DNA of 11,887 nucleotides. Origin: a virus (Duplodnaviria > Heunggongvirae > Uroviricota > Caudoviricetes). The notes beneath the pieces are model-generated. The model was given only the letters and a program-made list of their open reading frames with translations. It was not told the origin of the DNA and ran no database searches. A program made the translations under genes and the position numbers. Below, piece after piece: positions 1-11,887 of this stretch; position 1 is the first letter of the stretch; every line of letters begins with the position of its first letter. The stretch lies in the IMG/VR virus record IMGVR_UViG_2541047953_000003, positions 1 through 11,887 of that record. One strand, given 5' to 3'.

Positions 1-336
1 ATGGCAGAATCATTTGCAACAGGTTCCGATCATCAGGTTATAAACGAGCTCAACGGGGAAAGACTGAGAGAACCTAACGATGTTTTTAAACGTTTAGGTC
101 GAGCAATAAGATATAATTTTCAAGTGGACGATGCAAAATTTAGACGCGATAATGTAAAAGAAATAATTTCTAATTTATTCGCTAACAAAGTTGACGTTGA
201 CCATCCTGAAAATAAATACAAAGACTTTAAGGATCTCGAAGATAACGTTGAAAAAAGACTTCAAAATCGCCAGGCGAAATATCAAAATGAAATTAATCAA
301 CTATCTGCGCCAGGTGTTAATTTTGATGATATTTAA
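1..336 (+). CDS. 3' portion of a conserved hypothetical protein, probably truncated at the window edge (111 codons to the stop at 334..336)
   Basis: Open frame runs from position 1 to the stop and is convergent with mlaA, sharing a hairpin terminator. In E. coli K-12 the gene upstream of mlaA is yfdF, so this may be its C-terminus, but I do not recognise the sequence itself. Confidence 0.45.
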   Translation: MAESFATGSDHQVINELNGERLREPNDVFKRLGRAIRYNFQVDDAKFRRDNVKEIISNLFANKVDVDHPENKYKDFKDLEDNVEKRLQNRQAKYQNEINQLSAPGVNFDDI

Positions 337-480
337 AATTATTTTTCCAGTTTTTTGATTTTTCAACGCCTGAATATCGGAAATAGTCAGTGACGAACAT
401 CAGTATTTTTACATCATTACGTCCGGGTCATTGTCGGTTTATCTCCTTTTACTTGTGGTAATTGAGGGATAACAACAAAA

Positions 481-508
481 AAGGTGAGTTTTGCGACTCA
501 CCTTTTTT
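481..508. terminator. Bidirectional intrinsic terminator between the convergent upstream ORF and mlaA
   Basis: 9-bp stem AAGGTGAGT (481..489) / ACTCACCTT (496..504) with loop TTTGCG. It is flanked by an A-run upstream and a T-run downstream, so each strand sees hairpin plus U-tract. Confidence 0.7.
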
Positions 509-517
509 ATTTGTTTC

Positions 518-1273
518 TTATTCAGAATCAATATCTTTTAAATCATCCTGAATCGCTTGTGCGTTCGGATTTTCCTGCGGTTTGAGTTCGCCGCCATTAG
601 CGATGAAATCATGACGCTGGAAGTACGCTTCGCGCACCATAATATAAGGATCGGACGACTGACGCAGCAGACCATCGGAATCCAACAACTGCGCACGAGT
701 TTCTATCCCTTCAAGCGTCCATTTACCCACAGACATCGGCCAGGTCAGCCAGGAAAGAACCGGGTAAAGACCATCCGCCATATCACCACCGTCATCACGC
801 AGCGTGAAGCTACCGTAGAACGGTAACTGGACGTAAGGCCCATAACCCACGCCATAATGACCAAGCGTACTACCGAAGCGGTGAGGTTCAGTCCGTTGCA
901 GTTTCGGGTTCGCCATCCCTGCAACATCAATAAAACCGCCCATCCCCAAAATGGTGTTCAGGAAAAAGCGGGTAAAGTGGACCATCCCCTGATAAGGGTC
1001 GCCCTGCAAGAAGTAGTTAACCATCACCGCAGGTTCTTCAAGGTTGCCAGTAAAGTTGCTCAAACCGTTACGCGCCGGTTGCGGAACATAATCACGCCAG
1101 GCGACAGCGACCGGTCGAACAATATACGGGTCTAATACATTGAAGTTGAAGTTGTACATGGTGCGGTTGAACCCTTCTAACGGGTCAGAACGCCCTTGCT
1201 GATCTGTACCGGAACTCGCACACCCCACCAGAAGCGTAGTTCCCAGAGCAAGCGCCGACAGGCGAAGCTTCAT
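518..1273 (-). CDS. mlaA: MlaA (VacJ) outer-membrane lipoprotein, phospholipid asymmetry maintenance
   Basis: 251-aa ORF with N-terminal signal peptide and lipobox (LLVGC ASS). The full-length sequence matches MlaA/VacJ as I remember it, and the mlaA-yfdC-argW synteny is that of E. coli. Confidence 0.9.
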   Translation of the reverse strand: MKLRLSALALGTTLLVGCASSGTDQQGRSDPLEGFNRTMYNFNFNVLDPYIVRPVAVAWRDYVPQPARNGLSNFTGNLEEPAVMVNYFLQGDPYQGMVHFTRFFLNTILGMGGFIDVAGMANPKLQRTEPHRFGSTLGHYGVGYGPYVQLPFYGSFTLRDDGGDMADGLYPVLSWLTWPMSVGKWTLEGIETRAQLLDSDGLLRQSSDPYIMVREAYFQRHDFIANGGELKPQENPNAQAIQDDLKDIDSE

Positions 1274-1566
1274 AAATGTCTCCCTGTTTTTTTATGGCTT
1301 ATGCAGTTTGCCATCCATGACGGAACGATACCGTATCCGCCTGTTTAGGTGTGGGCGATTGTAACAGCACGTCAACTGATGTCCAGACGCCCTGATTTGC
1401 TGATTTGATCATAGCCTGGTAATCGCCGCCCTGTAGGCTACTTGATTCTATAGAAACAGAAAAAGGCAAACGCAGCCTTTTCTACATTTTCAGAGTAACT
1501 CCCGTCAGTTGCGAGCAAAAAAGCCGCTACGCTTTAGCTATACGTGCTAATTCAAGAGAAGAGACC

Positions 1567-2499
1567 ATGGACAACGACAAAATTGATCAACACAGCGACG
1601 AAATTGAAGTTGAGAGCGAAGAAAAAGAGCGCGGCAAAAAAATAGAAATAGATGAAGACCGACTCCCCTCCCGGGCGATGGCAATTCATGAGCATATCCG
1701 CCAGGATGGTGAAAAAGAGCTGGAACGCGACGCAATGGCGCTACTGTGGTCAGCCATTGCGGCGGGTCTGTCGATGGGCGCTTCGTTACTGGCAAAAGGG
1801 ATATTTCATGTCGAACTGGAAGGTGTGCCGGGCAGCTTCTTGCTGGAGAATCTCGGTTATACCTTTGGTTTTATTATCGTCATTATGGCCCGCCAGCAAT
1901 TATTTACCGAAAATACCGTGACTGCGGTACTACCCGTCATGCAAAAACCGACAATGAGCAACGTCGGCTTACTTATACGGTTATGGGGCGTCGTGCTGCT
2001 GGGTAATATTCTCGGGACAGGTATTGCGGCGTGGGCATTTGAATATATGCCTATCTTCAATGAAGAAACTCGCGATGCATTTGTCAAAATCGGCATGGAT
2101 GTGATGAAGAACACCCCCAGCGAGATGTTTGCCAACGCGATCATTTCCGGCTGGCTGATCGCCACTATGGTTTGGATGTTTCCTGCAGCGGGTGCGGCAA
2201 AGATTGTGGTGATTATATTGATGACCTGGCTTATTGCCCTGGGTGACACCACCCATATCGTGGTCGGTTCTGTTGAAATCCTCTATCTGGTGTTTAACGG
2301 TACGCTGCACTGGAGCGATTTCATCTGGCCCTTCGCACTACCTACTTTAGCGGGGAACATCTGCGGCGGCACCTTTATCTTCGCGTTAATGAGTCATGCA
2401 CAGATTCGTAACGACATGAGCAATAAGCGTAAAGCAGAAGCACGCCAAAAAGCAGAACGTGCGGAAAACATTAAGAAAAATTATAAAAACCCGGCATAA
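1567..2499 (+). CDS. yfdC: Formate/nitrite transporter (FNT) family inner-membrane protein YfdC
   Basis: 310-aa ORF with multiple hydrophobic helices after an acidic N-terminus, preceded by a purine-rich RBS (GAGAAGAGA). Size and position between mlaA and argW match yfdC. Confidence 0.85.
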   Translation: MDNDKIDQHSDEIEVESEEKERGKKIEIDEDRLPSRAMAIHEHIRQDGEKELERDAMALLWSAIAAGLSMGASLLAKGIFHVELEGVPGSFLLENLGYTFGFIIVIMARQQLFTENTVTAVLPVMQKPTMSNVGLLIRLWGVVLLGNILGTGIAAWAFEYMPIFNEETRDAFVKIGMDVMKNTPSEMFANAIISGWLIATMVWMFPAAGAAKIVVIILMTWLIALGDTTHIVVGSVEILYLVFNGTLHWSDFIWPFALPTLAGNICGGTFIFALMSHAQIRNDMSNKRKAEARQKAERAENIKKNYKNPA

Positions 2500-2557
2500 A
2501 TGGCGAGGGTTTAAGCAATCGAGCGGCAGCGTACTTACCCCGCACTCCATTAGCGGG

Positions 2558-2563
2558 TATACT
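2558..2563 (+). promoter_or_regulatory. Candidate -10 element (TATACT) of the argW tRNA promoter
   Basis: TATACT sits 11 nt upstream of the mature tRNA 5' end and is followed by a GC-rich discriminator-like stretch (GCCGC). The -35 is weak, so the call is tentative. Confidence 0.3.
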
Positions 2564-2574
2564 CATGCCGCATT

Positions 2575-2649
2575 GTCCTCTTAGTTAAATGGATATAACG
2601 AGCCCCTCCTAAGGGCTAATTGCAGGTTCGATTCCTGCAGGGGACACCA
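2575..2649 (+). tRNA. argW: tRNA-Arg, anticodon CCU
   Basis: 75-nt sequence folding as a cloverleaf: acceptor stem GTCCTCT/AGGGGAC, anticodon loop CTCCTAA (anticodon CCT), T-loop GGTTCGATTCC, encoded 3' CCA. Followed directly by an integrase gene, the classic argW island arrangement. Confidence 0.93.
2620..2635 (+). repeat. 16-bp segment of argW (TTGCAGGTTCGATTCC) that recurs exactly at 11652..11667; candidate att core, attL copy
   Basis: Exact 16/16 direct repeat found by eye. Its position inside the tRNA T-arm next to a P4-type integrase is typical of a tRNA-targeting att core. Confidence 0.6.
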
Positions 2650-2739
2650 TTTATCAGTTCGCTCCCATCCGTACCAGTCCGCAAAATCCCCTGAACATCA
2701 AGCCTTCCGTATATTCACAGTTCGTAATGGTTCGCGTCA

Positions 2740-2810
2740 GATCGTTGACAGCCACACTCCATGACGGGTAAAAAGTGGATAAAATAATTTTACCCACCGG
2801 ATTTTTACCC
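2740..2810 (+). promoter_or_regulatory. Candidate intS promoter and recombinase/RDF binding region (attL arm)
   Basis: TTGACA at 2745..2750; TAAAAT at 2780..2785; inverted repeat GGGTAAAA (2765..2772) / TTTTACCC (2789..2796), with TTTTACCC repeated again at 2803..2810 abutting the ATG. GTTCG motifs recur at 2626, 2657, 2719 and 2730. Confidence 0.35.
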
Positions 2811-3968
2811 ATGCTCACCGTTAAGCAGATTGAAGCAGCAAAGCCGAAAGAAAAACCATACCGCCTACTCGATGGTAATGGTCTGTACCTTTATGTCCCT
2901 GTATCCGGAAAAAAGGTCTGGCAGCTTCGCTACAAGATTGACGGTAAGGAGAAAATCCTGACCGTAGGAAAATATCCGCTAATGACTTTGCAGGAGGCAA
3001 GGGATAAGGCATGGACTGCGAGGAAAGACATCTCGGTTGGCATCGATCCGGTAAAGGCGAAAAAGGCTTCGTCTAACAACAATTCATTTAGTGCGATTTA
3101 CAAGGAATGGTACGAGCACAAGAAGCAAGTCTGGTCAGTAGGCTATGCAACTGAACTTGCCAAAATGTTTGATGACGACATTTTACCCATCATCGGCGGT
3201 CTTGAGATTCAGGATATTGAGCCGATGCAACTGCTGGAAGTAATCCGCAGATTTGAAGATCGCGGTGCAATGGAGCGAGCCAACAAAGCCCGCAGAAGAT
3301 GCGGCGAGGTTTTCCGTTACGCTATTGTCACCGGAAGGGCTAAATATAACCCAGCACCTGACCTTGCTGACGCCATGAAGGGATACCGCAAGAAGAACTT
3401 CCCGTTTCTTCCTGCAGACCAGATCCCGGCATTCAATAAAGCACTAGCAACATTTTCAGGAAGTATCGTATCGCTCATTGCCACCAAGGTTTTACGCTAT
3501 ACAGCCCTAAGAACGAAAGAGCTTCGTTCCATGCAATGGAAGAACGTCGATTTTGAAAACAGGATTATCACCATCGACGCCAATGTGATGAAGGGACGCA
3601 AAATTCATGTGGTTCCTATGTCAGACCAGGTGGTTGAACTTCTCACTACGCTAAGCTCAATCACTAAACCAGTGTCAGAGTTTGTTTTTGCCGGACGCAA
3701 CGATAAGAAGAAGCCAATCTGCGAGAACGCGGTGCTACTTGTGATCAAACAAATCGGCTATGAGGGTCTGGAAAGCGGTCACGGATTCAGGCATGAATTC
3801 AGTACGATTATGAACGAGCACGAATGGCCTGCTGACGCTATTGAGGTGCAACTGGCACATGCCAACGGCGGATCTGTGCGTGGGATTTACAACCATGCTC
3901 AGTATCTCGATAAGCGCAGAGAAATGATGCTGTGGTGGGCGGACTGGCTGGACGAAAAGACACAGTAA
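2811..3968 (+). CDS. intS: Tyrosine recombinase, P4-type prophage integrase (IntS-like, 385 aa)
   Basis: ORF immediately downstream of argW. The C-terminal region has the tyrosine recombinase signature (HGFRHEF ... VQLAHANGG ... RGIYNHAQY). Start chosen at MLTVKQ (2811); an in-frame ATG at 2775 would add 12 residues. Confidence 0.85.
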   Translation: MLTVKQIEAAKPKEKPYRLLDGNGLYLYVPVSGKKVWQLRYKIDGKEKILTVGKYPLMTLQEARDKAWTARKDISVGIDPVKAKKASSNNNSFSAIYKEWYEHKKQVWSVGYATELAKMFDDDILPIIGGLEIQDIEPMQLLEVIRRFEDRGAMERANKARRRCGEVFRYAIVTGRAKYNPAPDLADAMKGYRKKNFPFLPADQIPAFNKALATFSGSIVSLIATKVLRYTALRTKELRSMQWKNVDFENRIITIDANVMKGRKIHVVPMSDQVVELLTTLSSITKPVSEFVFAGRNDKKKPICENAVLLVIKQIGYEGLESGHGFRHEFSTIMNEHEWPADAIEVQLAHANGGSVRGIYNHAQYLDKRREMMLWWADWLDEKTQ

Positions 3969-3976
3969 TCAAAAGC

Positions 3977-4000
3977 GGCAGGCCACATAAAAAGCCTGCC
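3977..4000. terminator. Hairpin between convergent intS and the UmuD'-like gene
   Basis: Stem GGCAGGC (3977..3983) / GCCTGCC (3994..4000) with a 10-nt A-rich loop. The U-tract is weak on both strands. Confidence 0.4.
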
Positions 4001-4318
4001 TTATACCGCTACGCTGTCACTTCTCACATCGATGATGGTGTGTGTCACCACGCCGGCGACAGTGATATCATCCAGGGCCTCGCCTTCAATCGCTTCGCCG
4101 TCTTCGGTTATCAGCGACCGCCCTCTCAACGTGGCAAGTTCCGTCCCGCCGCCGTGCTGGATCAGAACCTGACTACCCTGCCTTGGTTTCAGGGAGATAT
4201 CCAACACAACGTAACCGCCAGACCGCTCGAAAACTAGCGTGTTTGGGCCTACATTGCAGATCGCGTTAACAGACAGACGCTGCTCAACGTAGTCAGACGC
4301 CGGAGACGGGAACGCCAT
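4001..4318 (-). CDS. UmuD'-like protein (S24 LexA/UmuD fold), genetically pre-truncated and lacking the GDSM serine motif
   Basis: N-terminus MAFPSPASDYVEQR matches the UmuD segment GFPSPAADYVEQR that immediately follows the RecA-mediated cleavage site. The C-terminal half aligns loosely with the UmuD beta-core, but no GDSM-type serine motif is present (RSGGY instead). Start codon overlaps the stop of the upstream small gene (TGATG). An in-frame ATG at 4351 is the alternative start. Confidence 0.7.
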   Translation of the reverse strand: MAFPSPASDYVEQRLSVNAICNVGPNTLVFERSGGYVVLDISLKPRQGSQVLIQHGGGTELATLRGRSLITEDGEAIEGEALDDITVAGVVTHTIIDVRSDSVAV

Positions 4319-4557
4319 CAGATGACCCTCCCCATGTTGGCCATCATCCACAGCCTGTTTTCGCTATGCTCTGCCGTTTTGTCGACAAAGTACGTCTGCT
4401 CTCTTGATATCCAGTTGTTAGCCTCCTCTTCTGAAAAATGGATACCCCTCCGCTGTAGTTCGGAGATGAAAGAATCAGTGTAAAGGTATTGATAACCTTT
4501 AGGATTTATAGAAATGGAGGCTCTGAAAGCCTCCGCGATGGCGTTACGTCTGATCAT
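4318..4557 (-). CDS. Small hypothetical protein (79 aa from ATG; 83 aa if the TTG at 4569 is used), first gene of the SOS-box operon
   Basis: ORF directly downstream of the LexA box and translationally coupled to the UmuD'-like gene. I recognise no family. The arrangement recalls the small impC gene preceding impA in plasmid impCAB operons; this is an analogy by position only. Confidence 0.5.
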   Translation of the reverse strand: MIRRNAIAEAFRASISINPKGYQYLYTDSFISELQRRGIHFSEEEANNWISREQTYFVDKTAEHSENRLWMMANMGRVI

Positions 4558-4575
4558 GTCTCTTACCAAACAAAA

Positions 4576-4591
4576 CTGTATTTATATACAG
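4576..4591 (-). promoter_or_regulatory. LexA (SOS) box CTGTATTTATATACAG overlapping a candidate promoter
   Basis: Matches the E. coli consensus CTGT-N8-ACAG with an AT-rich centre. It lies 19 bp upstream of the small-gene ATG. On the transcribed strand a -35 TTGACT (complement of 4612..4617) sits about 17-18 bp upstream of a -10 that overlaps the box. Confidence 0.7.
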
Positions 4592-4622
4592 TATTGTTTG
4601 CGTTAATCAACAGTCAATCATT

Positions 4623-6722
4623 TTATTGAATAAAAGTGTAAGGAGAAGCGATGGTATATTGTGCATTAGCCCCTATGGGAGTATCGAAAATCCACACCTC
4701 ACTCAAACCATCTTTTGTAATTGACGCGTTAGGTCCCCCATGGCTGCATCCATAAAGATATAACTTTGCTTTACCAGTTAAGTCGGATCCTTGCCCAGCA
4801 GTAAAGCAGGCGCCACCGATAAAGTCTGCCCTTGAACTATCATGCGAGTAACACCCAAAGTTAGCTGTAACCGTGCCATCATGAACATCGTGAACTACAC
4901 GGCCAAACGTTCCGTAGTATTCACCGTTCAAACGTATCCCTACAGTTCCGTCATGAGCGGTAGAGCCGTTATTATTTGGTAAATTATCAAAACCACTCCA
5001 ACGGCCAGTACAACCAATTTCGATAAACCACGGCTTTATCCCAAGACCATTCTGATCGGCATGATAGTTAAATGCGTCCTGCATCCCGTATTGAGCAGTG
5101 CAATTCTGCATAATACAGTTTACACCTAAAGAGTTAAAGGCATTCCTTGTCACAGATAAATCAAATATACAATTTTTTGCATATAAGTATCCTTTTTTAC
5201 CCGCCGTTTGAACCTCAGCCTGAAACCCCCTAAAGCTGTCCTTAAAGTGAATATTTTCAATATAAACTTTGCTATTATCCTGAATTCTTCCATTAGTCAA
5301 TTGAAGAACAAGCCGTGAATTAGAATCAGGAGCTCGCCCGTCAAAAAGATGAATATACAGCGTATTCCCTGTTTTATAGGATGAGCCAGGTGTTGAAACG
5401 CAGTCGGCAAGGCTGGCTACGGGAGTTAGAACCTGAGCATGTCCATAACTATCAAGATTGGCATAGTCAACAACGTTTAGAACAAGATTACCTGTGTACT
5501 GGTATACGCCAGCGCTTCCCTGTGCCGCCCACGTTGCAGCCGGTTCAACAGTGCTCAGAATTGGTGTTCCATCGTATCCGATGAAATCGAGCTCGCGGTC
5601 AACTACGCTAACATTCCATGTAAAATCACGGGTATATTCCATCCCGCCTTTTATCATGATTGTCCTTGCTGCCGGGGTTTTCTCAATGGCATATTTTATA
5701 CGCTGGAATGGTTTAGCCTGCGTGCCGTCTCCAGTCGTATCACTACCGTTAGTGCAGTCCACATAATATGTTGTCCCGCTGGATGCCTTCTTCACAGCCA
5801 CATCATAATCAGTCCAATATCTAAGCGTGCCATCAGAACGAAGTGCGCAGTAAATTGGAATCTGCTCTTCTATTCTTCTCAGCTCACCTGGAAACCATGG
5901 TATTGATGATGGGCATCCGGCAATTCCAAAAGCACTTTTATTTGCATTGCCAATTAATTCTATAAGAGTCCCTGATTTAATATGAGCAATAAGTAGCGAG
6001 CCGTCAAATGGATATCTGTCACGCGCTTCATATGTTCCGTCTGATTTAACAACAATACATATTGTGCTTGATGTTGTTGTGACATTCTGATTTTGACCAA
6101 TAACACTAACGCCATTAAAAGAATAAAGACCGCCAGAAAAGCTTATAGTTGATGATCCTGCAACTGGTTTCCATTGAGGAGATATAATCACGCCTCCTAA
6201 CGATCTGTATAATCTATCAAGAGCTGTATAAACGGTGCTGTCCCTATAGCCAACCAAGGTGGCTCCATTTGACTCTCCAAGCGCTGAGAAATCTACGCTT
6301 ATTGAGCTTATTGCATCGTATACATTGGTGTCTTTAAATCCTACTAATTTCGCGCCATCTGGCTGTGAAAGATCATATCTTAGCTGATCTGGTGAATATC
6401 TTAAGACATTGGAGAAGTAAAATTGCTGTGCTCCATATGCATCATACACAGCCATGCTATGGCTTTGAACTGTCACGAATTTGGCAATCTGTCCGTTATA
6501 TACAGGATAACCAGCGGCGTTAATGATGATTGGCTGCGAAACAGGAACGTGAGAACCATCCTCATTCTCCACATAAACCTGAATCTGGTTTTCAGGATTT
6601 ACCGGGTCAGTGTCAATTTTACCGATATAAATTTTACCATTGGCAACCGCTTTAAAAGAACGCGCCATAGTGAAGAGTTGCGAAGGCATGCTTACTACAA
6701 CATTGGCTGTAATGTCTGTCAT
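4623..6722 (-). CDS. Phage tailspike protein (P22 gp9-type head-binding domain plus divergent receptor-binding region)
   Basis: 699-aa ORF. The first ~110 residues ([11 protein letters not shown]...[23 protein letters not shown]...) match the conserved N-terminal domain of P22-like tailspikes as remembered. The rest differs from P22 gp9 and contains a beta-helix-type start motif ([15 protein letters not shown]...TIMIKGG). RBS GGAG upstream. Confidence 0.85.
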
Positions 6723-6779
6723 TTAATTTGCTCCAGATAGAAGGAAACGCCGCAGCGTGGCTACGGCAATGCGTCATTG

Positions 6780-6794
6780 AGACCACAGTGGTCT
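6780..6794. promoter_or_regulatory. Candidate Mnt operator: perfect 7-1-7 palindrome AGACCACAGTGGTCT
   Basis: Perfect palindrome between divergent mnt and tailspike, immediately upstream of a candidate mnt promoter (-35 TTGTGG 6797..6802, -10 TATGAT 6820..6825). Resembles the P22 mnt operator half-site as I recall it. A second small palindrome CAATGCGTCATTG lies at 6766..6778. Confidence 0.5.
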
Positions 6795-6857
6795 TATTGT
6801 GGATATAACCAGTAGATCATATGATGCCGATCCACTTACAAAAGTGAGGCATCAAGA

Positions 6858-7109
6858 ATGGGAAGAGATGACCCGCAATTTAATCTGCGGCTACCTTACG
6901 AATTAAAGGAAAAACTAAAACAGCGAGCCAAATCCAATGGCCGCTCTCTTAATTCAGAATTAGTTCAGATAGTGACTGATGCTGTATCAAAGCCATCCAA
7001 AATTTCAGGCTATCGAGACGATGCGGAACGCATCGCTGATGAGCAGTCTGAACTTGTTAAGAAGATGGTGTTTGATACGCTGAAGGATTTGTACAAAAAA
7101 CCCACCTGA
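6858..7109 (+). CDS. mnt: Mnt-type repressor (Arc/MetJ ribbon-helix-helix family)
   Basis: 83-aa ORF with strong similarity throughout to P22 Mnt as remembered (RDDP.FN.R.P...EKLK.RA..NGRS.NSEL.QIV.DA.SKPS...GYR.DAER.ADEQSELVKKMVFDTLKDLYKK). RBS GTGAGG 8 nt upstream. Confidence 0.85.
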   Translation: MGRDDPQFNLRLPYELKEKLKQRAKSNGRSLNSELVQIVTDAVSKPSKISGYRDDAERIADEQSELVKKMVFDTLKDLYKKPT

Positions 7110-7122
7110 TGGTGGGTTCCAT
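7101..7122. terminator. Intrinsic terminator between convergent mnt and the lipoprotein gene
   Basis: Stem CCCACC (7101..7106) / GGTGGG (7111..7116) with loop TGAT containing the mnt stop codon. On the - strand the hairpin is followed by TTTTTTG, making it strong for the lipoprotein gene; the + strand U-tract is weaker. Confidence 0.7.
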
Positions 7123-7125
7123 TTA

Positions 7126-7545
7126 TTAGTCTTGCTTTGTGGACGGTATAAGGGATGCATTTGCCTCTTTAGGCTTCAAGGTATACATCCCACCATTAAA
7201 TGGATCTACAGCAAGCCAACCAATTAACCCACCAAACACAAGGTTTCCACCAATATACCAACCATTAGCATTGGCTTTTATTGGCATGGTAACTGGTTCG
7301 TACCCATCCTTCTCCATAGTGATCTGGTAGCTCTTTTTGCCAAAATAACTACCATCTGACTTGGCAAGAGTTACTCCTTGCGGGGTCTTACCTTGCGCAA
7401 CAATCACGCCTGATTCGTCTTTTACCTTAAAGCTCGCACCGGAAGGATTGCTGTTCACTTGCACAAGCTGTGTTTCGTCACCAACAATAGTTGCGCACCC
7501 AGATAACATGATAACGCCAGCAACGACGCCGATAATCCTCTTCAT
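7126..7545 (-). CDS. Putative prophage lipoprotein (139 aa) with a PEGA-like beta region and a glycine-rich hydrophobic C-terminus
   Basis: Signal peptide with lipobox (VIMLSGC). The middle region has a PEGA-like pattern (VQVNSNPSGASFKV...GKTPQGVTL...GYEPV), and the C-terminus has a Gly-zipper-like hydrophobic segment (YIGGNLVFGGLIGWLAV). Has its own terminator. The domain call is from pattern only. Confidence 0.6.
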   Translation of the reverse strand: MKRIIGVVAGVIMLSGCATIVGDETQLVQVNSNPSGASFKVKDESGVIVAQGKTPQGVTLAKSDGSYFGKKSYQITMEKDGYEPVTMPIKANANGWYIGGNLVFGGLIGWLAVDPFNGGMYTLKPKEANASLIPSTKQD

Positions 7546-7616
7546 ATTACTTTCCGTTTTGTTAGAATCAGAAAGATCTTAATAATAAAAAGTATTTTCG
7601 TGAAGATATTGTCGAT

Positions 7617-7631
7617 TGAGTTAATAACTCA
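7617..7631. promoter_or_regulatory. Perfect 7-1-7 palindrome TGAGTTAATAACTCA in the divergent lipoprotein intergenic region
   Basis: Perfect palindrome about 50 bp upstream of the + strand lipoprotein start, inside an AT-rich divergent promoter region (7546..7679). Operator-like; the binding protein is unknown. Confidence 0.35.
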
Positions 7632-7679
7632 TTTACACCCAACAGTGCCATGATGGCAAAGATAAGGAGAGTTAATCAT

Positions 7680-8165
7680 ATGAAAAAATCACTGTTAATT
7701 ATCCCGCTTCTGCTGGCAGGGTGTGCAAAGATTAGCGACTATCAGGCAAGTTGCGAACAACGCTATCCAAAGCTTAGCGATATGGCTAATTGCCTTGATG
7801 CTAGCGTGAAGAGCGACTCACGCATGGCATCAGCACCAACACCTAAGTTATATGTCCTTGCTGCGAAGATGCTCGGGCAAGGTGTCGATGATGGCAAGAT
7901 AAGTGACGCGCAGGCAAGACTTGAGCTTCAGAATCTTTATGTTCAATTACAAAGCCAAGAACAAGCCCAACAAATAGCGCAAAGCCAAGCATTCCAGCAG
8001 GCTTTATTGAATTATCAGGCTGTAAACACTATGCAAGCGATCGAGCAAAAAGCGAGACAGCCTGTTATAACTCAACCATATCCAACACGAGTTGACACTT
8101 ACACAAACTGCAATTCAGGGTTTGGAAATACAGTCACATGCAACAGTAGCAGTAACATCAGATAA
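7680..8165 (+). CDS. Putative prophage lipoprotein (161 aa) with a Gln-rich, probably coiled-coil region
   Basis: Start taken at MKKSLLIIPLLLAGC (lipobox LAGC) with RBS AAGGAGA 9 nt upstream. The in-frame ATG at 7650 is less likely. The mature part contains a Q-rich heptad-like stretch (LELQNLYVQLQSQEQAQQIAQSQAFQQALLNYQ). I recognise no family. Confidence 0.6.
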   Translation: MKKSLLIIPLLLAGCAKISDYQASCEQRYPKLSDMANCLDASVKSDSRMASAPTPKLYVLAAKMLGQGVDDGKISDAQARLELQNLYVQLQSQEQAQQIAQSQAFQQALLNYQAVNTMQAIEQKARQPVITQPYPTRVDTYTNCNSGFGNTVTCNSSSNIR

Positions 8166-8255
8166 CAATCAGCAAAGGTATCGCCTATGCAGAGGGATAC
8201 GATAAACCTCGCGTTCTACATATTTGGTTTTTGCACGTTCATGGTGTTTGAAAAG

Positions 8256-10649
8256 CTATTCTGACAACGCATCAGACTTAGCCCCCTGCATCATAGCGTT
8301 AATTGCCTTTTGTGCCTGCTGCATGGCTTTCTCAAACGCTGTTGAACCGCGTGGGGTGTTTGCCATTCGGAGCATTGCATTTCTGAATGGCTCGCTCTCA
8401 TAGGCGCGAGTAAGAAGTCCGTAGCTTACTGCTGCGCCAGTTGTCGCCGGGTTCATTGCCGTCCCATACCCAATTATGAACGGGATAGTTTGCTGCCCTG
8501 TGGGTGTTGTTACTGCCGCTTTTGCAGCCTGCTGCGTGGATTGCAGGTAGTTTTTTAATCCTTTCAGATAAGCAGCGTCCTGCCCCTTAAATGTGATGCC
8601 AGTCTGTTTTTGCAGGATGTTAAGCTGCCGAAGGAACTGGTCAGGGGATCCGCCAGATTTCTCCATCGCCTTTCCAATGATGCCATTGCGCATTTGCGCC
8701 CTGCCAACACGACCAACTGAGTTATACAGCGTCTTAATTTCCGATTTGTTCTTGCTGAATAGCATGTTGTTGACAACTTCCGGTGTCAGGTCGCCTTTCA
8801 TGAGAACATTCTTCAGCCTGGTATTCTTTAGTTTCGCCGCTTCGTCAGCGTAGACGGCATTGGCCTGCTGATATTTACGGAGAGTATCGTTGCCAAGATT
8901 CTGACCAATGGCACCATTGATATCGTCTGTCATCGCCTTGTAAACGCGCTGAATGGCAGCATCGGAACGGTTTGGCAACACTGGTCGTTCCCCCTTCACG
9001 TCCATTCTGAACTGGCTGCGCAGATCGCTTAATTGCTTCAAATCCAGATTTACCGGACCATCAGGACCAGCATTGCGAACAAGCTCATCACGATAGGACT
9101 GAAGTTTTGAAATAGTCTCGTTATCGGCGACCTTACCAAGCTTCTGCAGATTAGATATTTCTGTATCAATCTGCTGAATTGCTCGCGCAGGATGAATGTT
9201 TACTCCAGCCATAGCATTCTGAACCTGCTCCAGTCGATTACCGGCGGCACGACGAATTCCTGATGTTTTCGCTTTAAGGCTGTCAATAACAACCGCTGGA
9301 TCATACTCACCGAATTTATCGGCAAATCTCTGCACCAACTGGCTTCTCGCTTCCTGTTGCGTTGCTCTCATTCCGCTTGTGCCAGCCAGGGGGATATTTT
9401 CTGCTGTAGTCTGCGCCATTTTCCCGACGCGGGAAGTAGGCTGTAACAGGTCTGTGGTGTGCAGAGGAACTCCTTCACGCTCTGCAAACCTGATAGCCTG
9501 TTGAGCTTCTGGTGCTATCGAACCACGAACACCACGATAAGCAGCACCTAATCCACGTCCGGCAGCGTTAATAGCACCGCCAGCCAGCACACCAACGCCT
9601 AAATCGGTGGCGAGTGCTTCCGCATCATCTTTCGCACTGTTTGCAGCAAGTGATCCAACTGCGTTTTCTGCTAGAAGACGAGTTGCACCCTGAGCAATTC
9701 GACCAGCAAGTGTTGGTGCCTGTGTTGCCGCTCTCTCAACGCCAGCAGGAGTGAGGTAAGGCAATGCTTCAGCAAATACCCTTCCCTCTGTCGTTTGTGG
9801 AGTCAGCGCGCCTTGCTGAAGGCCAAAGTCCTGCTCTAATCCCTGCGTTGTTACTCGTGGTGCTGGTTGATATGTACCATCGCCAATGCCGAGTTTACCT
9901 CCAGCCCAAGCCGCCGCGCTTGTTACAGCATCAGTGAGTTCAGCAGGTATGTTCGCTACGTTGATTCCTGCCTGTAGTAAGCCGCGCCCGGTTTCAGCAA
10001 GTCCATTACCAAGGTCAGACATTATTCCGCCTTGCTGCTGAACAGGTTTCGGTGCGACAGAACTTACGGGTTGAGGTGGCTGCTGACTGGCTGCCTGCTG
10101 CTCAATCTGAGCAAATGGATTATTTGGGTCTGACTGCACGCCTGATGCCGATACTTGTTCGGATGACTGTGCTTCCAGTTGTGCAAACGGGTTGTTAGGG
10201 TCTTGCTGAGGATGTACCTTTGCAGAGGTGGCGCGCTGTTCGACTGTTGAGTCTGTCACCGGGTCACCCGCCCATTGAGCAAAGCGATCATCAACGTAAC
10301 CGCGGCCTTCAGGTCCTGGCGTATATTCACCACGCTTTGCCTTCATAACGTTGCCGGGACCGTCGTGATAAGCCTGAAGAGCGTCACGCCAGTTACCAAA
10401 CTGCTGGTACATCTTTGCCAGATAGCGCGCGCCAGCGTCAGCCTGATATTCGGGGTTTTGCATTTGCTCATCGGTATAACCCATATCACGCCATGTCCCA
10501 GGCATGACCTGAGTCAATCCTACAGCCCCGGCGGAGCTTACTGCGGCAGGGTTGTAAGAAGACTCCTTGGCACCCAGTGCAGTCATCAACCCTTCTGGCA
10601 CACCGTAACGTGCGCCAGCCTGCTCTAACAAATCACGGTAATTAGCCAT
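8256..10649 (-). CDS. Phage ejection (internal virion) protein with an N-terminal lytic transglycosylase (SLT) domain
   Basis: 797-aa ORF. The N-terminus carries family-1 lytic transglycosylase motifs (ALGAKESSYNP with catalytic Glu; AVGLTQVMPGTW; AGARYL). It is followed by a tandem peptide repeat (DPNNPFAQLE / DPNNPFAQIE) and a long Ala/Gly/Gln-rich body. Its position upstream of the immI-like region and tailspike corresponds to the last ejection gene of P22-like phages. Confidence 0.75.
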   Translation of the reverse strand: MANYRDLLEQAGARYGVPEGLMTALGAKESSYNPAAVSSAGAVGLTQVMPGTWRDMGYTDEQMQNPEYQADAGARYLAKMYQQFGNWRDALQAYHDGPGNVMKAKRGEYTPGPEGRGYVDDRFAQWAGDPVTDSTVEQRATSAKVHPQQDPNNPFAQLEAQSSEQVSASGVQSDPNNPFAQIEQQAASQQPPQPVSSVAPKPVQQQGGIMSDLGNGLAETGRGLLQAGINVANIPAELTDAVTSAAAWAGGKLGIGDGTYQPAPRVTTQGLEQDFGLQQGALTPQTTEGRVFAEALPYLTPAGVERAATQAPTLAGRIAQGATRLLAENAVGSLAANSAKDDAEALATDLGVGVLAGGAINAAGRGLGAAYRGVRGSIAPEAQQAIRFAEREGVPLHTTDLLQPTSRVGKMAQTTAENIPLAGTSGMRATQQEARSQLVQRFADKFGEYDPAVVIDSLKAKTSGIRRAAGNRLEQVQNAMAGVNIHPARAIQQIDTEISNLQKLGKVADNETISKLQSYRDELVRNAGPDGPVNLDLKQLSDLRSQFRMDVKGERPVLPNRSDAAIQRVYKAMTDDINGAIGQNLGNDTLRKYQQANAVYADEAAKLKNTRLKNVLMKGDLTPEVVNNMLFSKNKSEIKTLYNSVGRVGRAQMRNGIIGKAMEKSGGSPDQFLRQLNILQKQTGITFKGQDAAYLKGLKNYLQSTQQAAKAAVTTPTGQQTIPFIIGYGTAMNPATTGAAVSYGLLTRAYESEPFRNAMLRMANTPRGSTAFEKAMQQAQKAINAMMQGAKSDALSE

Positions 10650-10811
10650 TTACTGCCCCAAAGATGGAAGATATCCGTAGCGATTAATGAAGTCGATTGA
10701 CAGCTCGGGGTGCTGCTTCAGGTAATGGTCATGTATGAAGACGGTGAGATGTGGTCTGCAATGTGGAATGGCAATCGCTGGGATGATGGCACCGAATATC
10801 CGGATCCGCAC
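10650..10811 (-). pseudogene. Possible 3' remnant of the upstream ejection-protein gene (no start codon); marks the deletion junction
   Basis: The - strand frame ending at TAA (complement of 10650..10652), directly abutting the ATG of the 797-aa gene (TAAATG), is open for only 53 codons and contains no Met. It overlaps a + strand small ORF (10725..10868), so one of the two is not real. Confidence 0.3.
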
Positions 10812-10864
10812 TCAGTTACGCACTGGCGTGAAATGCCAGCAGCGCCGAAACAGGAGGTGAAGTC

Positions 10865-11077
10865 GTGAGCAAGCACATCATCAAATATGACTATCGAGAG
10901 GGAGTTAAACTTGCAAAGCATGAAATAGAAACGTGGTGCGGACATGCGCCACAATTTTCAGACTGGTTGTTTCAGGATGCTCAGCACGCGCTGTTGAGCA
11001 TTGAGCAGGGAACGCTGCTTGTTCCTTGCAAGAATTGTCTGGCAGCAATCATCAAAACGGCGCAGGAGGTGAAGTGA
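10865..11077 (+). CDS. Small hypothetical protein (70 aa, GTG start), possible Cys/His metal-binding motif
   Basis: Strong SD (CAGGAGGTGAAGT) 8 nt upstream of the GTG. Contains CGH ... CKNC. Its stop overlaps the start of the next gene (TGATG). Confidence 0.5.
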   Translation: MSKHIIKYDYREGVKLAKHEIETWCGHAPQFSDWLFQDAQHALLSIEQGTLLVPCKNCLAAIIKTAQEVK

Positions 11078-11361
11078 TGGACTCCTTCGCGAAATATACG
11101 ATCATTGACTGGATAGCATTCCTTCAGGTTTTGCTCATCTGGTTTTATATGGCTTACAGGAGTGGACAGTGGATTGTCAGTGTAGCCTGTAGCAAGGGAT
11201 GGCGTTGGTGGAACAGAAAGAATAAAAAAGCACTGGCATTGGATTCGTTTTACGAAGCATTCAATCTTAACAGCCTTCAGCCTGGTTCTGTCATTGTAGT
11301 CACCACTCAAAGCGGCATGACGATACAAATTCACAAGCCAAAGGAGGAAGGTCGTGGCTAA
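11077..11361 (+). CDS. Small hypothetical membrane protein (94 aa)
   Basis: Start at MDSFAKY, preceded by the same 13-nt CAGGAGGTGAAGT element. One N-terminal hydrophobic helix (IIDWIAFLQVLLIWFYMAY). The longer ORF from 11026 is less likely. Confidence 0.5.
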   Translation: MDSFAKYTIIDWIAFLQVLLIWFYMAYRSGQWIVSVACSKGWRWWNRKNKKALALDSFYEAFNLNSLQPGSVIVVTTQSGMTIQIHKPKEEGRG

Positions 11362-11423
11362 CCTGCAACTTGCCGTCAAAGGTGAATAACAATCCTCGCA
11401 TTCACTGGGATTTCTTTTATCTG

Positions 11424-11450
11424 AACTCGCTACGGCGAGTTTTGTTTTAT
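11424..11450 (+). terminator. Candidate hairpin terminator after the membrane-protein gene
   Basis: Stem AACTCGC / GCGAGTT with loop TACG, followed by TTTTGTTTTAT. Confidence 0.4.
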
Positions 11451-11461
11451 GGAGATGATAA

Positions 11462-11629
11462 ATGCACTTCCGAGTCACAGGTGAATGGAATGGAGAGCCA
11501 TTCGACAGGGTTATCGAAGCCGAGAACATCAGCGACTGCTATGACCACTGGATGCTGTGGGCGCAGATAGCACATGCAGACGTAACCAATATTCGAATTG
11601 AAGAACTGAAAGAACACCAAGCCGCCTGA
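11462..11629 (+). CDS. Small hypothetical protein (55 aa), prophage right-arm gene
   Basis: ATG preceded by GGAG with 7-nt spacing; ORF MHFRVTGEWNGEPFDRVIEAENISDCYDHWMLWAQIAHADVTNIRIEELKEHQAA, followed directly by a strong terminator. It is below the ORF-track size cutoff. It may correspond to the small ypdJ-type ORF next to torI in K-12, but I do not recognise the sequence. Confidence 0.45.
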   Translation: MHFRVTGEWNGEPFDRVIEAENISDCYDHWMLWAQIAHADVTNIRIEELKEHQAA

Positions 11630-11641
11630 TGGCGGTTTTTT
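11621..11641 (+). terminator. Rho-independent terminator
   Basis: Stem CCGCC (11622..11626) / GGCGG (11631..11635) with loop TGAT containing the stop codon, followed by TTTTTTATT. Confidence 0.75.
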
Positions 11642-11651
11642 ATTGCCTGAT

Positions 11652-11667
11652 TTGCAGGTTCGATTCC
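11652..11667 (+). repeat. Second exact copy of the 16-bp argW segment TTGCAGGTTCGATTCC; candidate att core (attR or internal junction)
   Basis: 16/16 identity with 2620..2635. It lies between a terminator and the RBS of the excisionase gene. The sequence downstream of the repeat is not tRNA-like. Confidence 0.55.
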
Positions 11668-11686
11668 CTATTCGGAGATAGCACTC

Positions 11687-11887
11687 ATGCAACACGAACT
11701 ACAGCCTGATTCACTGGTTGATTTGAAATTCATCATGGCCGATACTGGCTTCGGTAAAACCTTCATCTACGACCGGATTAAGTCCGGCGACCTGCCAAAA
11801 GCCAAAGTTATCCACGGGCGAGCAAGATGGTTATATCGTGACCATTGTGAATTCAAAAATAAGCTCTTAAGCCGCGCCAATGGGTAA
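11687..11887 (+). CDS. torI: Excisionase / recombination directionality factor (Xis/AlpA winged-helix family), TorI-like
   Basis: 66-aa ORF with the AlpA/Xis-type pattern (FIMADTGFGKTFIYDRIKSGDLPKAKVIHGRARWLYRD); RBS GGAG 9 nt upstream. Size and position at the far end of an argW prophage from intS match KplE1 TorI as I recall it. Confidence 0.65.
   Translation: MQHELQPDSLVDLKFIMADTGFGKTFIYDRIKSGDLPKAKVIHGRARWLYRDHCEFKNKLLSRANG

Follow-up and report, generated by a model that had tools for sequence, protein, structure and literature searches.

Several phages encode a UmuD'-like protein without a umuC gene to accompany it. In P1 (HumD), N15 (gp26), HK140 (gp28) and HK639, the phage-encoded protein starts with M-G-FPSPA, a LexA box lies just upstream of its gene, and umuC is lacking; phiKO2 gp23 is also of the HumD type according to the annotation note of HK140. 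In N15, HK140 and mEp390, the HumD-type genes lie at the end of the tail block, beside int/attP or par genes. The GenBank note on P1 HumD states that the protein functionally complements UmuD', and McLenigan et al. are said to have found in 1999 that it substitutes for UmuD'. Here, a cassette with the same general features is described in a stretch of 11,887 nucleotides from a tailed phage (Caudoviricetes; positions 1 to 11,887 of IMG/VR record IMGVR_UViG_2541047953_000003). This whole stretch is called the window, and coordinates are given on its numbering. The cassette occupies about 640 bp on the minus strand (3977-4617), between a P22-type tailspike gene on one side and intS on the other, and consists of a promoter with a LexA box, two genes called A and B, and a terminator. 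Phage HumD genes behind the same operator are already known; what is new is a loop-deleted short form of the protein, encoded by gene B, and a coupled partner, encoded by gene A. The arrangement differs from that of the HumD genes in that A separates the box from the HumD-like gene. Gene A is absent from P1 and N15, while in HK140 it accompanies a longer form of HumD.

The umuDC operon of Escherichia coli, which encodes DNA polymerase V (Pol V), shares with the cassette its promoter and operator layout, the arm GFPSPAxDYVEQR and the S24 fold. The cassette differs from umuDC in having no UmuC, no N-terminal 24 residues with the cleavage site, no Ser-Lys dyad, and an extra gene upstream. Plasmid operons of the impCAB type reportedly (Lodwick et al. 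1990) have a small gene before the umuD and umuC homologues, and the small protein, ImpC, is DinI-like. These are also SOS operons in which the gene for a small protein directly precedes that for a UmuD homologue, but gene A has no DinI similarity (hhalign probability ~0.2%), and the cassette contains no polymerase gene. Finally, small partners of S24-family proteins include Acinetobacter DdrR, which works with UmuDAb, and GIL01 gp7, which works with LexA (PMC11332147 and its references). In those cases, a small protein acts with a LexA/UmuD-family protein in the DNA-damage response, and A may interact with B in a comparable way. However, UmuDAb and LexA are DNA-binding repressors that still self-cleave, and A is unrelated to gp7.

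This cassette, alike in gene order, overlap and box, occurs in HK140 (gp27-gp28), mEp390 (gp26), phiES15 (gp51-gp52), Erwinia phage 59 (gp23-gp24) and RothC. The phage pairs of PHROG 3469 and PHROG 3893 (HK140, mEp390, phiES15 and others) show no essential difference from that of the window, and their records consist of annotation only.

Organisation and control of the cassette

The elements of the cassette are the following.

4590-4617, minus strand: sigma-70-type promoter, with -35 TTGACT (4617-4612), a 16-nt spacer and -10 AATACT (4595-4590)
4574-4593, no strand assigned: LexA (SOS) box, with the core CTGT-N8-ACAG at 4576-4591 (CTGTATTTATATACAG)
4318-4557, minus strand: gene A, 79 amino acids (aa), ATG start, TGA stop at 4320-4318; PHROG 3893
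4001-4318, minus strand: gene B, 105 aa, begins MAFPSPASDYVEQ, TAA stop at 4003-4001; PHROG 3469
3967-4000, minus strand: intrinsic-terminator-like hairpin, GGCAGGC-loop-GCCTGCC (4000-3977), then a T-rich tail, GCTTTTGATT

The stop codon of A and the start codon of B share one base (TGATG). The Shine-Dalgarno sequence of B, GGAGG (4331-4327), is located 8 nt before its ATG, within the codons for the conserved C-terminal M-G-R of A. The terminator-like hairpin closes the cassette just short of the convergent end of intS. Longer readings of the two open reading frames (ORFs), of 83 aa from a TTG and 116 aa from a GTG, find no support, since all homologues begin at the positions used here and thus match the 79- and 105-aa calls.

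A sequence-only reading of this stretch had proposed an operon behind a near-consensus LexA box and a TTGACT -35 element. Both elements are present, and the position of the box is kept across loci. The box overlaps the -10 element (4595-4590), and its 20-mer on the gene strand, TACTGTATATAAATACAGTT, has two mismatches against the consensus TACTGTATATATATACAGTA. In the window, CTGT-N8-ACAG has a single match where 0.19 are expected, and 35 of 200 shuffles contain at least one. Such a lone match is poor evidence by itself and is not significant in 12 kb; the box is credible because it is conserved across loci, and not because of the window statistics.

This conservation is extensive. In 12 of 12 diverged phage and prophage loci, CTGT-N8-ACAG occurs exactly once, at 20-40 bp upstream of the module's first gene. 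In P1, the box before humD is an annotated LexA site in GenBank, and in N15 a box precedes gp26. When the loci are aligned, TACTGTAT...ACAGT is invariant and TTGAT(C) is conserved about 17 nt upstream. The tblastn matches extend to the start of gene A in 85 loci, of which 76 have a LexA box 13-23 nt from the ATG of A, either with a perfect core (66 loci) or with a CCAG half-site variant (10 loci). The commonest allele of the box, TACTGTATATAAAAACAGTA, is identical to the operator of umuDC in E. coli K-12, and the K-12 umuDC promoter has the same TTGATC-17 nt-TACTGT layout as the homologous phage loci. Because operator and promoter match those of K-12 umuDC, the control region of the cassette can be called umuDC-type, with A standing behind the operator and ahead of the UmuD'-like gene. 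The umu operon is among the most tightly LexA-controlled (PMC5342242). Judging from these features, the cassette would be under LexA control in vivo. Literature searches returned no LexA-binding or expression data for the pair.

Many Klebsiella loci in IMG/VR have a second perfect CTGT-N8-ACAG 430-580 bp downstream of B (at 6743-6898; for example, at 6898 in locus L028), which probably belongs to host DNA past the prophage end.

Gene B and the UmuD' lineage

The product of gene B matches the NCBIfam equivalog model for HumD (NF051876) with 42.8 bits and an E-value of 4.5e-11 (residues 1-101 on profile positions 1-121 of 129), which is below the curated cut-off of 120 bits. In the same scan, residues 3-43 match the UmuD model. 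The match to PHROG 3469, 'UmuD-like protein', is at 7.1e-44 (residues 1-102 on profile positions 1-102 of 106). No Pfam family is found for B at E <= 0.1, and the gathering score of Peptidase_S24 is not reached. In a phmmer search of PDB sequences, residues 2-43 of B align with UmuD' 1-42, which corresponds to UmuD 25-66 (1i4v at 6e-5).

B begins with M-A-FPSPA where UmuD has G25-FPSPA, so that its first residue stands at the equivalent of UmuD Gly25. It has neither a cleavable Ala/Cys-Gly site nor a preceding N-terminal segment, and starts right after the site. Since its first residues equal those of UmuD from Gly25 onward, B would be made already 'cleaved'.

An alignment of ten sequences (UmuD, P1 HumD, N15 gp26, HK140 gp28, B from the window and five other short forms) splits the phage proteins into two sub-families.

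Long form (P1, N15, HK140): 129 aa; Ser60 loop kept, with Ser (P1) or Thr (N15, HK140); Lys at the Lys97 column
Short form (window, RothC, mEp390, LAU1, Erwinia 59, phiES15): 105-108 aa; UmuD 57-68 deleted
Short form, further changes: Lys97 column not Lys (Leu in the window); about five further residues gone near UmuD 103-107

All aligned members begin with M-G/A-FPSPA, at the residue after the UmuD cleavage site, and seven of the nine columns that are invariant over the ten sequences fall within the first 12 residues, the UmuD' arm. Relative to UmuD, B has a 12-residue deletion (S57-D68) that includes Ser60, and Leu at the Lys97 column. The Ser-Lys dyad (UmuD Ser60/Lys97) is missing in all six aligned short forms. 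Identity of B to the long forms of P1, N15 and HK140 is 31-35% (33-35% for P1 HumD).

Because the Ser60 loop and Lys97 are lost, B is, as read from its sequence, not a protease but a pseudo-protease on an S24 scaffold. Ser60 and Lys97 function solely in self-cleavage. This cleavage role is given in PMC5342242. In a protein that is made pre-cleaved, the loss of such residues would be an expected relaxation and is unsurprising. Given the absence of the dyad and scores below the HumD and Pfam S24 thresholds, B is set apart as a distinct short HumD/UmuD' sub-family (PHROG 3469).

The AlphaFold2 model of B has a disordered arm and a confident beta core (predicted local distance difference test, pLDDT, of 75-91 for residues 25-97). 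In a Foldseek search of the PDB, the top 22 matches of this model are all S24-family proteins, with probabilities of 0.96-1.0 and template modelling (TM) scores of 0.41-0.62; the best E-value, 1.5e-3, is modest. The best matches (probability 1.0, TM 0.55-0.62) are UmuD' (1i4v, 1ay9, 1umu), the UmuD-RecA filament (8gmt), LexA C-domains and the lambda cI C-domain. Thus, in the model, B carries the beta-rich C-domain fold of the S24 family and retains the UmuD' arm, the beta core and the C-terminal strand.

Much of this had been anticipated by the sequence-only reading, which held that the second product is UmuD'-like, starts at the UmuD' cleavage point and lacks the serine motif. The start and the lineage are borne out by the HumD, PHROG and fold matches, and the missing motif is explained by a clean deletion of the Ser60 loop. 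The same reading named the lack of an S24/UmuD fold as a finding that would speak against it, and this fold is present in the model. Its proposed precedent, P1 HumD, is apt: the protein is about 35% identical and has its own annotated LexA site.

The partner encoded by gene A

A matches PHROG 3893, a family of unknown function, over its full length (9.6e-38; residues 1-79 on profile positions 1-79 of 79). The protein from the window has no Pfam, NCBIfam or PADLOC match, 30 diverged members of the family have no Pfam match, and neither phmmer nor a profile search finds anything for A among PDB sequences. A profile search of 1.84 billion representative proteins yields 112 clusters, nearly all of them stand-alone proteins of about 79 aa. 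The residues common to the 30 diverged members are A10, F11, T27, F30, L34, N47, W49, I50, F57 and D59. The AlphaFold2 model (pLDDT 73) consists of a helix, a beta-hairpin, two helices and a low-confidence C-terminal helix. Foldseek finds no significant match for it in the PDB; the best (E 0.16) is an EF-hand-like chance match, and no LexA or winged-helix protein is among the matches listed. The sole match in BFVD is a member of A's own family. By these searches, the family of A is small and confined to phages, and no fold or domain can be recognised in it.

Several candidate identities for A were rejected on sequence or profile grounds. The profile of the A family has an hhalign probability of 0.17% against HK140 DinI, which speaks against a DinI/ImpC-like protein. 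The idea that A and B are the halves of a LexA/UmuDAb-type repressor split at the cleavage site, with A as the LexA N-domain, fails on an hhalign probability of 0.06% and the lack of a fold match. For GIL01 gp7, the probability is 0.7%, but gp7 and DdrR are not homologous to each other, and dissimilarity of A to gp7 says little on function. P1 lxr is divergent, 190 aa long and unrelated to gene A. Fusions of A and B were considered as evidence of interaction and set aside, since only one frameshift-type fusion was found (P0316), and P0284 and P0378 are repeat artefacts.

Annotation of A homologues is uneven. In Erwinia phage vB_EhrS_59 (L009, 2501-2743), the homologue is labelled 'DNA polymerase V' in RefSeq, a label that appears to have been transferred from the UmuD-like neighbour and to reflect no true similarity. 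In HK225 (L012, 2501-3408), the homologue (an annotated 99-aa ORF) is followed by a DNA invertase gene, and B is absent. In phage vB_EcoS-733R5 (ON470608.1, ~2423-4237), a site-specific recombinase gene stands between the A and B homologues, and some database proteins of the A family are named 'putative invertase'.

The 5' part of gene A in the window contains a strong hairpin at codons 8-14 (GGAGGCTTTCAGAGCCTCC, 4516-4534, -13.5 kcal/mol). In the commonest Klebsiella allele, these codons form another hairpin (CGCGGCTTTCCGCG, -8.5 to -13.4), and other alleles fold weakly. The hairpin may be an mRNA element or a mere by-product of the A-x-A-F-R-x-S codons.

The fold of B and the presence of a small partner raise the question of repressors. 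A, B or both might bind the S24 C-domain of LexA or of CI-type repressors as an antirepressor or cleavage modulator, and in this way tune prophage induction. The fold of B is that of the dimerising C-domains of LexA and lambda cI. SOS-dependent antirepressors include 186 Tum, the Gifsy antirepressors and N15 AntC, and the cassette, with its predicted LexA control, would resemble them. The gp7-LexA and DdrR-UmuDAb pairs are documented cases of small S24 partners (reference list of PMC11332147). Nevertheless, the best-conserved part of B is the UmuD-specific arm FPSPAxDYxE, and this indicates UmuD-type partners. The cassette has also stayed intact in a short cryptic remnant that shows no immunity region in the window, it is found in many phage types with no sign of tracking one immunity type, and A resembles none of gp7, LexA and DinI. 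A repressor target is thus considered unlikely.

Absence of umuC and neighbouring SOS genes

The sequence-only reading had noted that no UmuC gene follows and that intS is next. A tblastn search with K-12 UmuC finds no umuC in the window, nor in the other phage and prophage loci that carry the module. The search also covered the 6-kb flanks of 80 IMG/VR loci, with no umuC in 79. The exception, L069, has an intact A-B pair and, 1.5 kb downstream of it, a separate and complete umuD-umuC operon that has a LexA box of its own; an adjacent UmuC gene in relatives, which that reading had named as contrary evidence, is therefore limited to this one separate operon. The L069 segment (1300-4430) comprises a Hin-recombinase remnant, a hypothetical gene, full-length umuD and umuC, and also occurs on many Klebsiella plasmids. 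In Klebsiella phage ST846-OXA48phi9.2 (L103, 3528-8261), the same umuDC segment occupies the slot after the tail-fibre genes, without A-B, and is followed there by ImmA/IrrE, an XRE regulator and a YedK/SRAP-like peptidase gene.

Another SOS gene, dinI, lies divergently on the A-B side in HK140 (L001, 3490-3756), mEp390 (L008, 2148-2414) and HK225 (L012, 2162-2449). Since dinI is divergent and one box is found in each intergenic region, this single LexA box may serve both directions. The presence of dinI and umuDC segments suggests that the slot collects alternative SOS cargo, namely A-B, humD alone, dinI or full umuDC.

In Salmonella phage BTP1 (L007, LT714109.2, ~2964-3400), a long-form HumD-like gene with an intact LexA box (TACTGTATTAATATACAGTA) lies between gtrA and int. 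This gene is disrupted by an in-frame stop after 'RPAAT' and by a frameshift further on, which makes it a pseudogene, and the annotated ORF BTP1_017 overlies it on the opposite strand.

Distribution and selection of the pair

The sequence-only reading did not recognise the pairing of A with B or its location. In fact, the arrangement is common: besides HK140, mEp390, RothC, phiES15 and Erwinia phage 59, it is found in hundreds of Klebsiella prophages. DNA similarity places the pair in 29 phage records, most of them of Klebsiella phages, and 146 of the 5,426 complete E. coli genomes have it as well. By tblastn, gene A is found in 47 phage records and relatives of gene B in 114. A profile of the short form retrieves as many as 2,494 clusters of proteins at 90% identity, its weakest matches being perhaps long HumD or UmuD, and at least 542 IMG/VR contigs encode a relative; a scan of genome contigs with closer alignment gave 7 loci. 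Several annotations already label B homologues 'UmuD-like protein'. In the literature that could be searched, the pair was not found by name, accession or context, and the deletion and the partner are likewise not discussed there.

The pair occurs in P22-like, HK97-like, lambda-like and other phages. It lies after the tail-fibre or tailspike genes, beside int/attP or the prophage end, in HK140, mEp390, RothC, phiES15, LAU1, Erwinia phage 59 and ST13-OXA48phi12.5, and the same post-tail placement is seen in a second E. coli prophage, at the bio locus, and in the hundreds of Klebsiella prophages.

A census was made of 100 fetched loci, 80 of them from IMG/VR. In 78 of the 80 IMG/VR loci, tblastn places an A homologue directly upstream of B, and 67 of these pass a strict test for intact ORFs. 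The two-gene operon proposed from the sequence alone is well supported: 75 of 83 intact pairs have a stop/start overlap of 1 nt (TGATG or TAATG), and in 72 of 78, GGAGG precedes B by 8 nt. A is thus almost always immediately upstream of B and, from this arrangement, translationally coupled to it. The length of B is steady at 105-108 aa. The A protein of the window is 90-92% identical to those of two loci and 62-73% to most others, while B is 82-94% identical; the distances of A and B correlate with r = 0.43. The alleles of A reassort relative to B.

Median ratios of nonsynonymous to synonymous substitution (dN/dS; NG86 method, ~2,000 comparisons each) are 0.128 for A and 0.106 for B. Together with constant lengths and conserved coupling, these low values mean that both genes are under strong purifying selection and that the module is not a decaying operon. 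A functionless remnant of a umuDC-type operon might have been expected from the umuDC-type operator and promoter, from the umuDC genes 1.5 kb downstream in L069, and from the clearly pseudogenised HumD of BTP1. This explanation is rejected by the dN/dS values of about 0.1 in both genes and by the census: lengths, overlap and Shine-Dalgarno sequence are all conserved, and the pair stands at hundreds of independent loci in several phage types. The umuDC operon of L069 is separate and complete, with its own umuD and LexA box, and belongs to a cassette shared with plasmids. Decay is therefore hardly credible.

Proposed role

LexA boxes that overlap the -10 element repress until RecA* triggers LexA cleavage. 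Dimers of UmuD' activate UmuC as Pol V, and the cleavage of UmuD is a slow, late step of the SOS response. Against this background, the reading preferred here, although tentatively and at somewhat less than an even chance, is that B is a cleavage-independent UmuD' surrogate that acts on host UmuC/RecA* with A as its partner, the pair being LexA-repressed cargo of temperate enterobacterial phages. Upon DNA damage, RecA would become active, LexA would be cleaved, and the cassette promoter would open. A and B would be produced together in similar amounts and form a complex. B could then engage host UmuC, the RecA filament or both through its UmuD'-type arm and core, as has been published for P1 HumD; as it is made pre-cleaved, B would need no RecA-mediated processing. 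The result would be an instant capacity for translesion synthesis that skips the slow UmuD-to-UmuD' step, so that the phage genome, induced and probably damaged, could be replicated in the brief time of the lytic phase. A would modulate or retarget B. We infer the A-B complex, the identity of the host partner and the choice of an activating over an inhibitory effect. The arm itself has documented relevance, since RecA-related functions are influenced by UmuD residues 25-35, and a cross-link to RecA forms at position 34 (PMC5342242).

Several points weigh against a UmuD' surrogate. The only tested relative is the long-form P1 HumD, to which B is 33-35% identical, and B reaches 42.8 bits against the HumD cut-off of 120. 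The 12-residue deletion and the second, 5-residue deletion could remove binding surfaces for UmuC or RecA, and a PDB sequence search found no structure of a UmuD'-UmuC complex for comparison. An obligatory partner that is absent from P1 and N15 hints at a function other than that of plain HumD. Finally, the LexA box is absent in 9 of the 85 loci.

The same deletions bear on an opposite effect, in which B, together with A, forms unproductive complexes with UmuC, UmuD/UmuD' or the RecA filament and so damps Pol V mutagenesis or the co-protease and recombination activities of RecA*. With the arm and dimer strand kept and 17 core residues lost, B may bind without functioning. [quoted passage not shown] B would also be stable, because it lacks the ClpX-tag region (UmuD residues 1-24). 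On the other hand, P1 HumD, the sole tested relative, promotes mutagenesis, no sign of inhibition is visible in the sequence, and the steps that must be assumed are the same as for a UmuD' surrogate. A decoy or inhibitor of this kind is accordingly rated as rather unlikely, if less so than a repressor target.

A broader and still doubtful proposal, slightly ahead of the decoy in probability, is that A and B form an SOS-induced heteromeric regulator on a dead, loop-deleted UmuD' scaffold, with targets beyond Pol V assembly, such as the capping or remodelling of RecA filaments or the C-domains of LexA and CI. If this were true, the prophage would determine when, or at what threshold, the host SOS response and its own induction set in, and A would represent a new family of S24-domain-binding proteins.

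Prophage setting

The genes around the cassette are listed below; strands are given where assigned.

2575-2649: tRNA-Arg(CCU), in the flank with mlaA and yfdC
2775-3968: intS, the next gene after the cassette
4623-6722: P22-type tailspike gene, with a Head_binding domain (3.8e-65)
6858-7109: mnt, with Arc and Repressor_Mnt domains
7126-7545, minus strand: lipoprotein-like ORF, with a weak PEGA domain
7650-8165, plus strand: lipoprotein-like ORF
8256-10649: gene for an injection or transglycosylase-type protein
11687-11887: ORF, putatively torI from its position and sequence

The frame mlaA-yfdC-argW-intS ... torI is shared with E. coli K-12, where it holds the cryptic prophage CPS-53/KplE1. 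From its gene content, the element at argW looks like a short cryptic E. coli prophage remnant of this type, of about 9 kb from intS to the putative torI. P22-type late genes (tailspike, injection protein) are present, and no immunity or replication region is seen in the window (2575-11887). Neither arc nor ant is visible near mnt in the window. The two lipoprotein-like ORFs (7126-7545 and 7650-8165) have no family or PADLOC match and occupy the place of the P22 sieA-type exclusion genes. No terminator is predicted between the tailspike stop (4623) and gene A; because of this, read-through from the late operon into the cassette would be possible in an intact phage.

In K-12, yfdG-yfdH-yfdI (gtrABS) lie directly after intS at this same argW locus, and in BTP1, the tailspike gene and int flank gtrC and gtrA. 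This placement of gtr genes supports the description, made from the sequence alone, of the slot as one that often holds genes for O-antigen conversion.

The contents of such slots also bear on whether the pair could be cargo for defence, exclusion or a toxin-antitoxin-like function, protecting the lysogen from other phages or killing damaged cells, with the UmuD ancestry of B being structural only. The post-tail slot beside att is one where accessory and exclusion genes are typical, and it also houses cor, gtr and O-acetyltransferase genes. A and B are tightly coupled, and their products have complementary charge, with an isoelectric point (pI) of 4.1-4.7 for B and a median of 8.7 for A, but the pI of A spans 4.7 to 12. 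No PADLOC-DB 2.0 family matches A or B at E <= 1, and the predicted LexA control and the dinI and umuDC neighbours fit DNA-damage physiology instead. A defence function is quite improbable.

Biological significance

Polymerase-less UmuD'-like genes have been known in phages since P1 HumD. The short-form lineage has gone further, in that it has deleted the protease loop and gained a dedicated, coupled partner while retaining the umuDC-type operator. Two of its features are unusual: the partner is obligatory, and the active-site loop has been cleanly excised under strong selection. Strong purifying selection acts on the pair in hundreds of Klebsiella and E. coli prophages, some of them in clinical lineages. 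If it grants instant error-prone synthesis, or blocks it, common prophages would alter the mutation supply of their hosts and their survival under DNA-damaging antibiotics such as fluoroquinolones.

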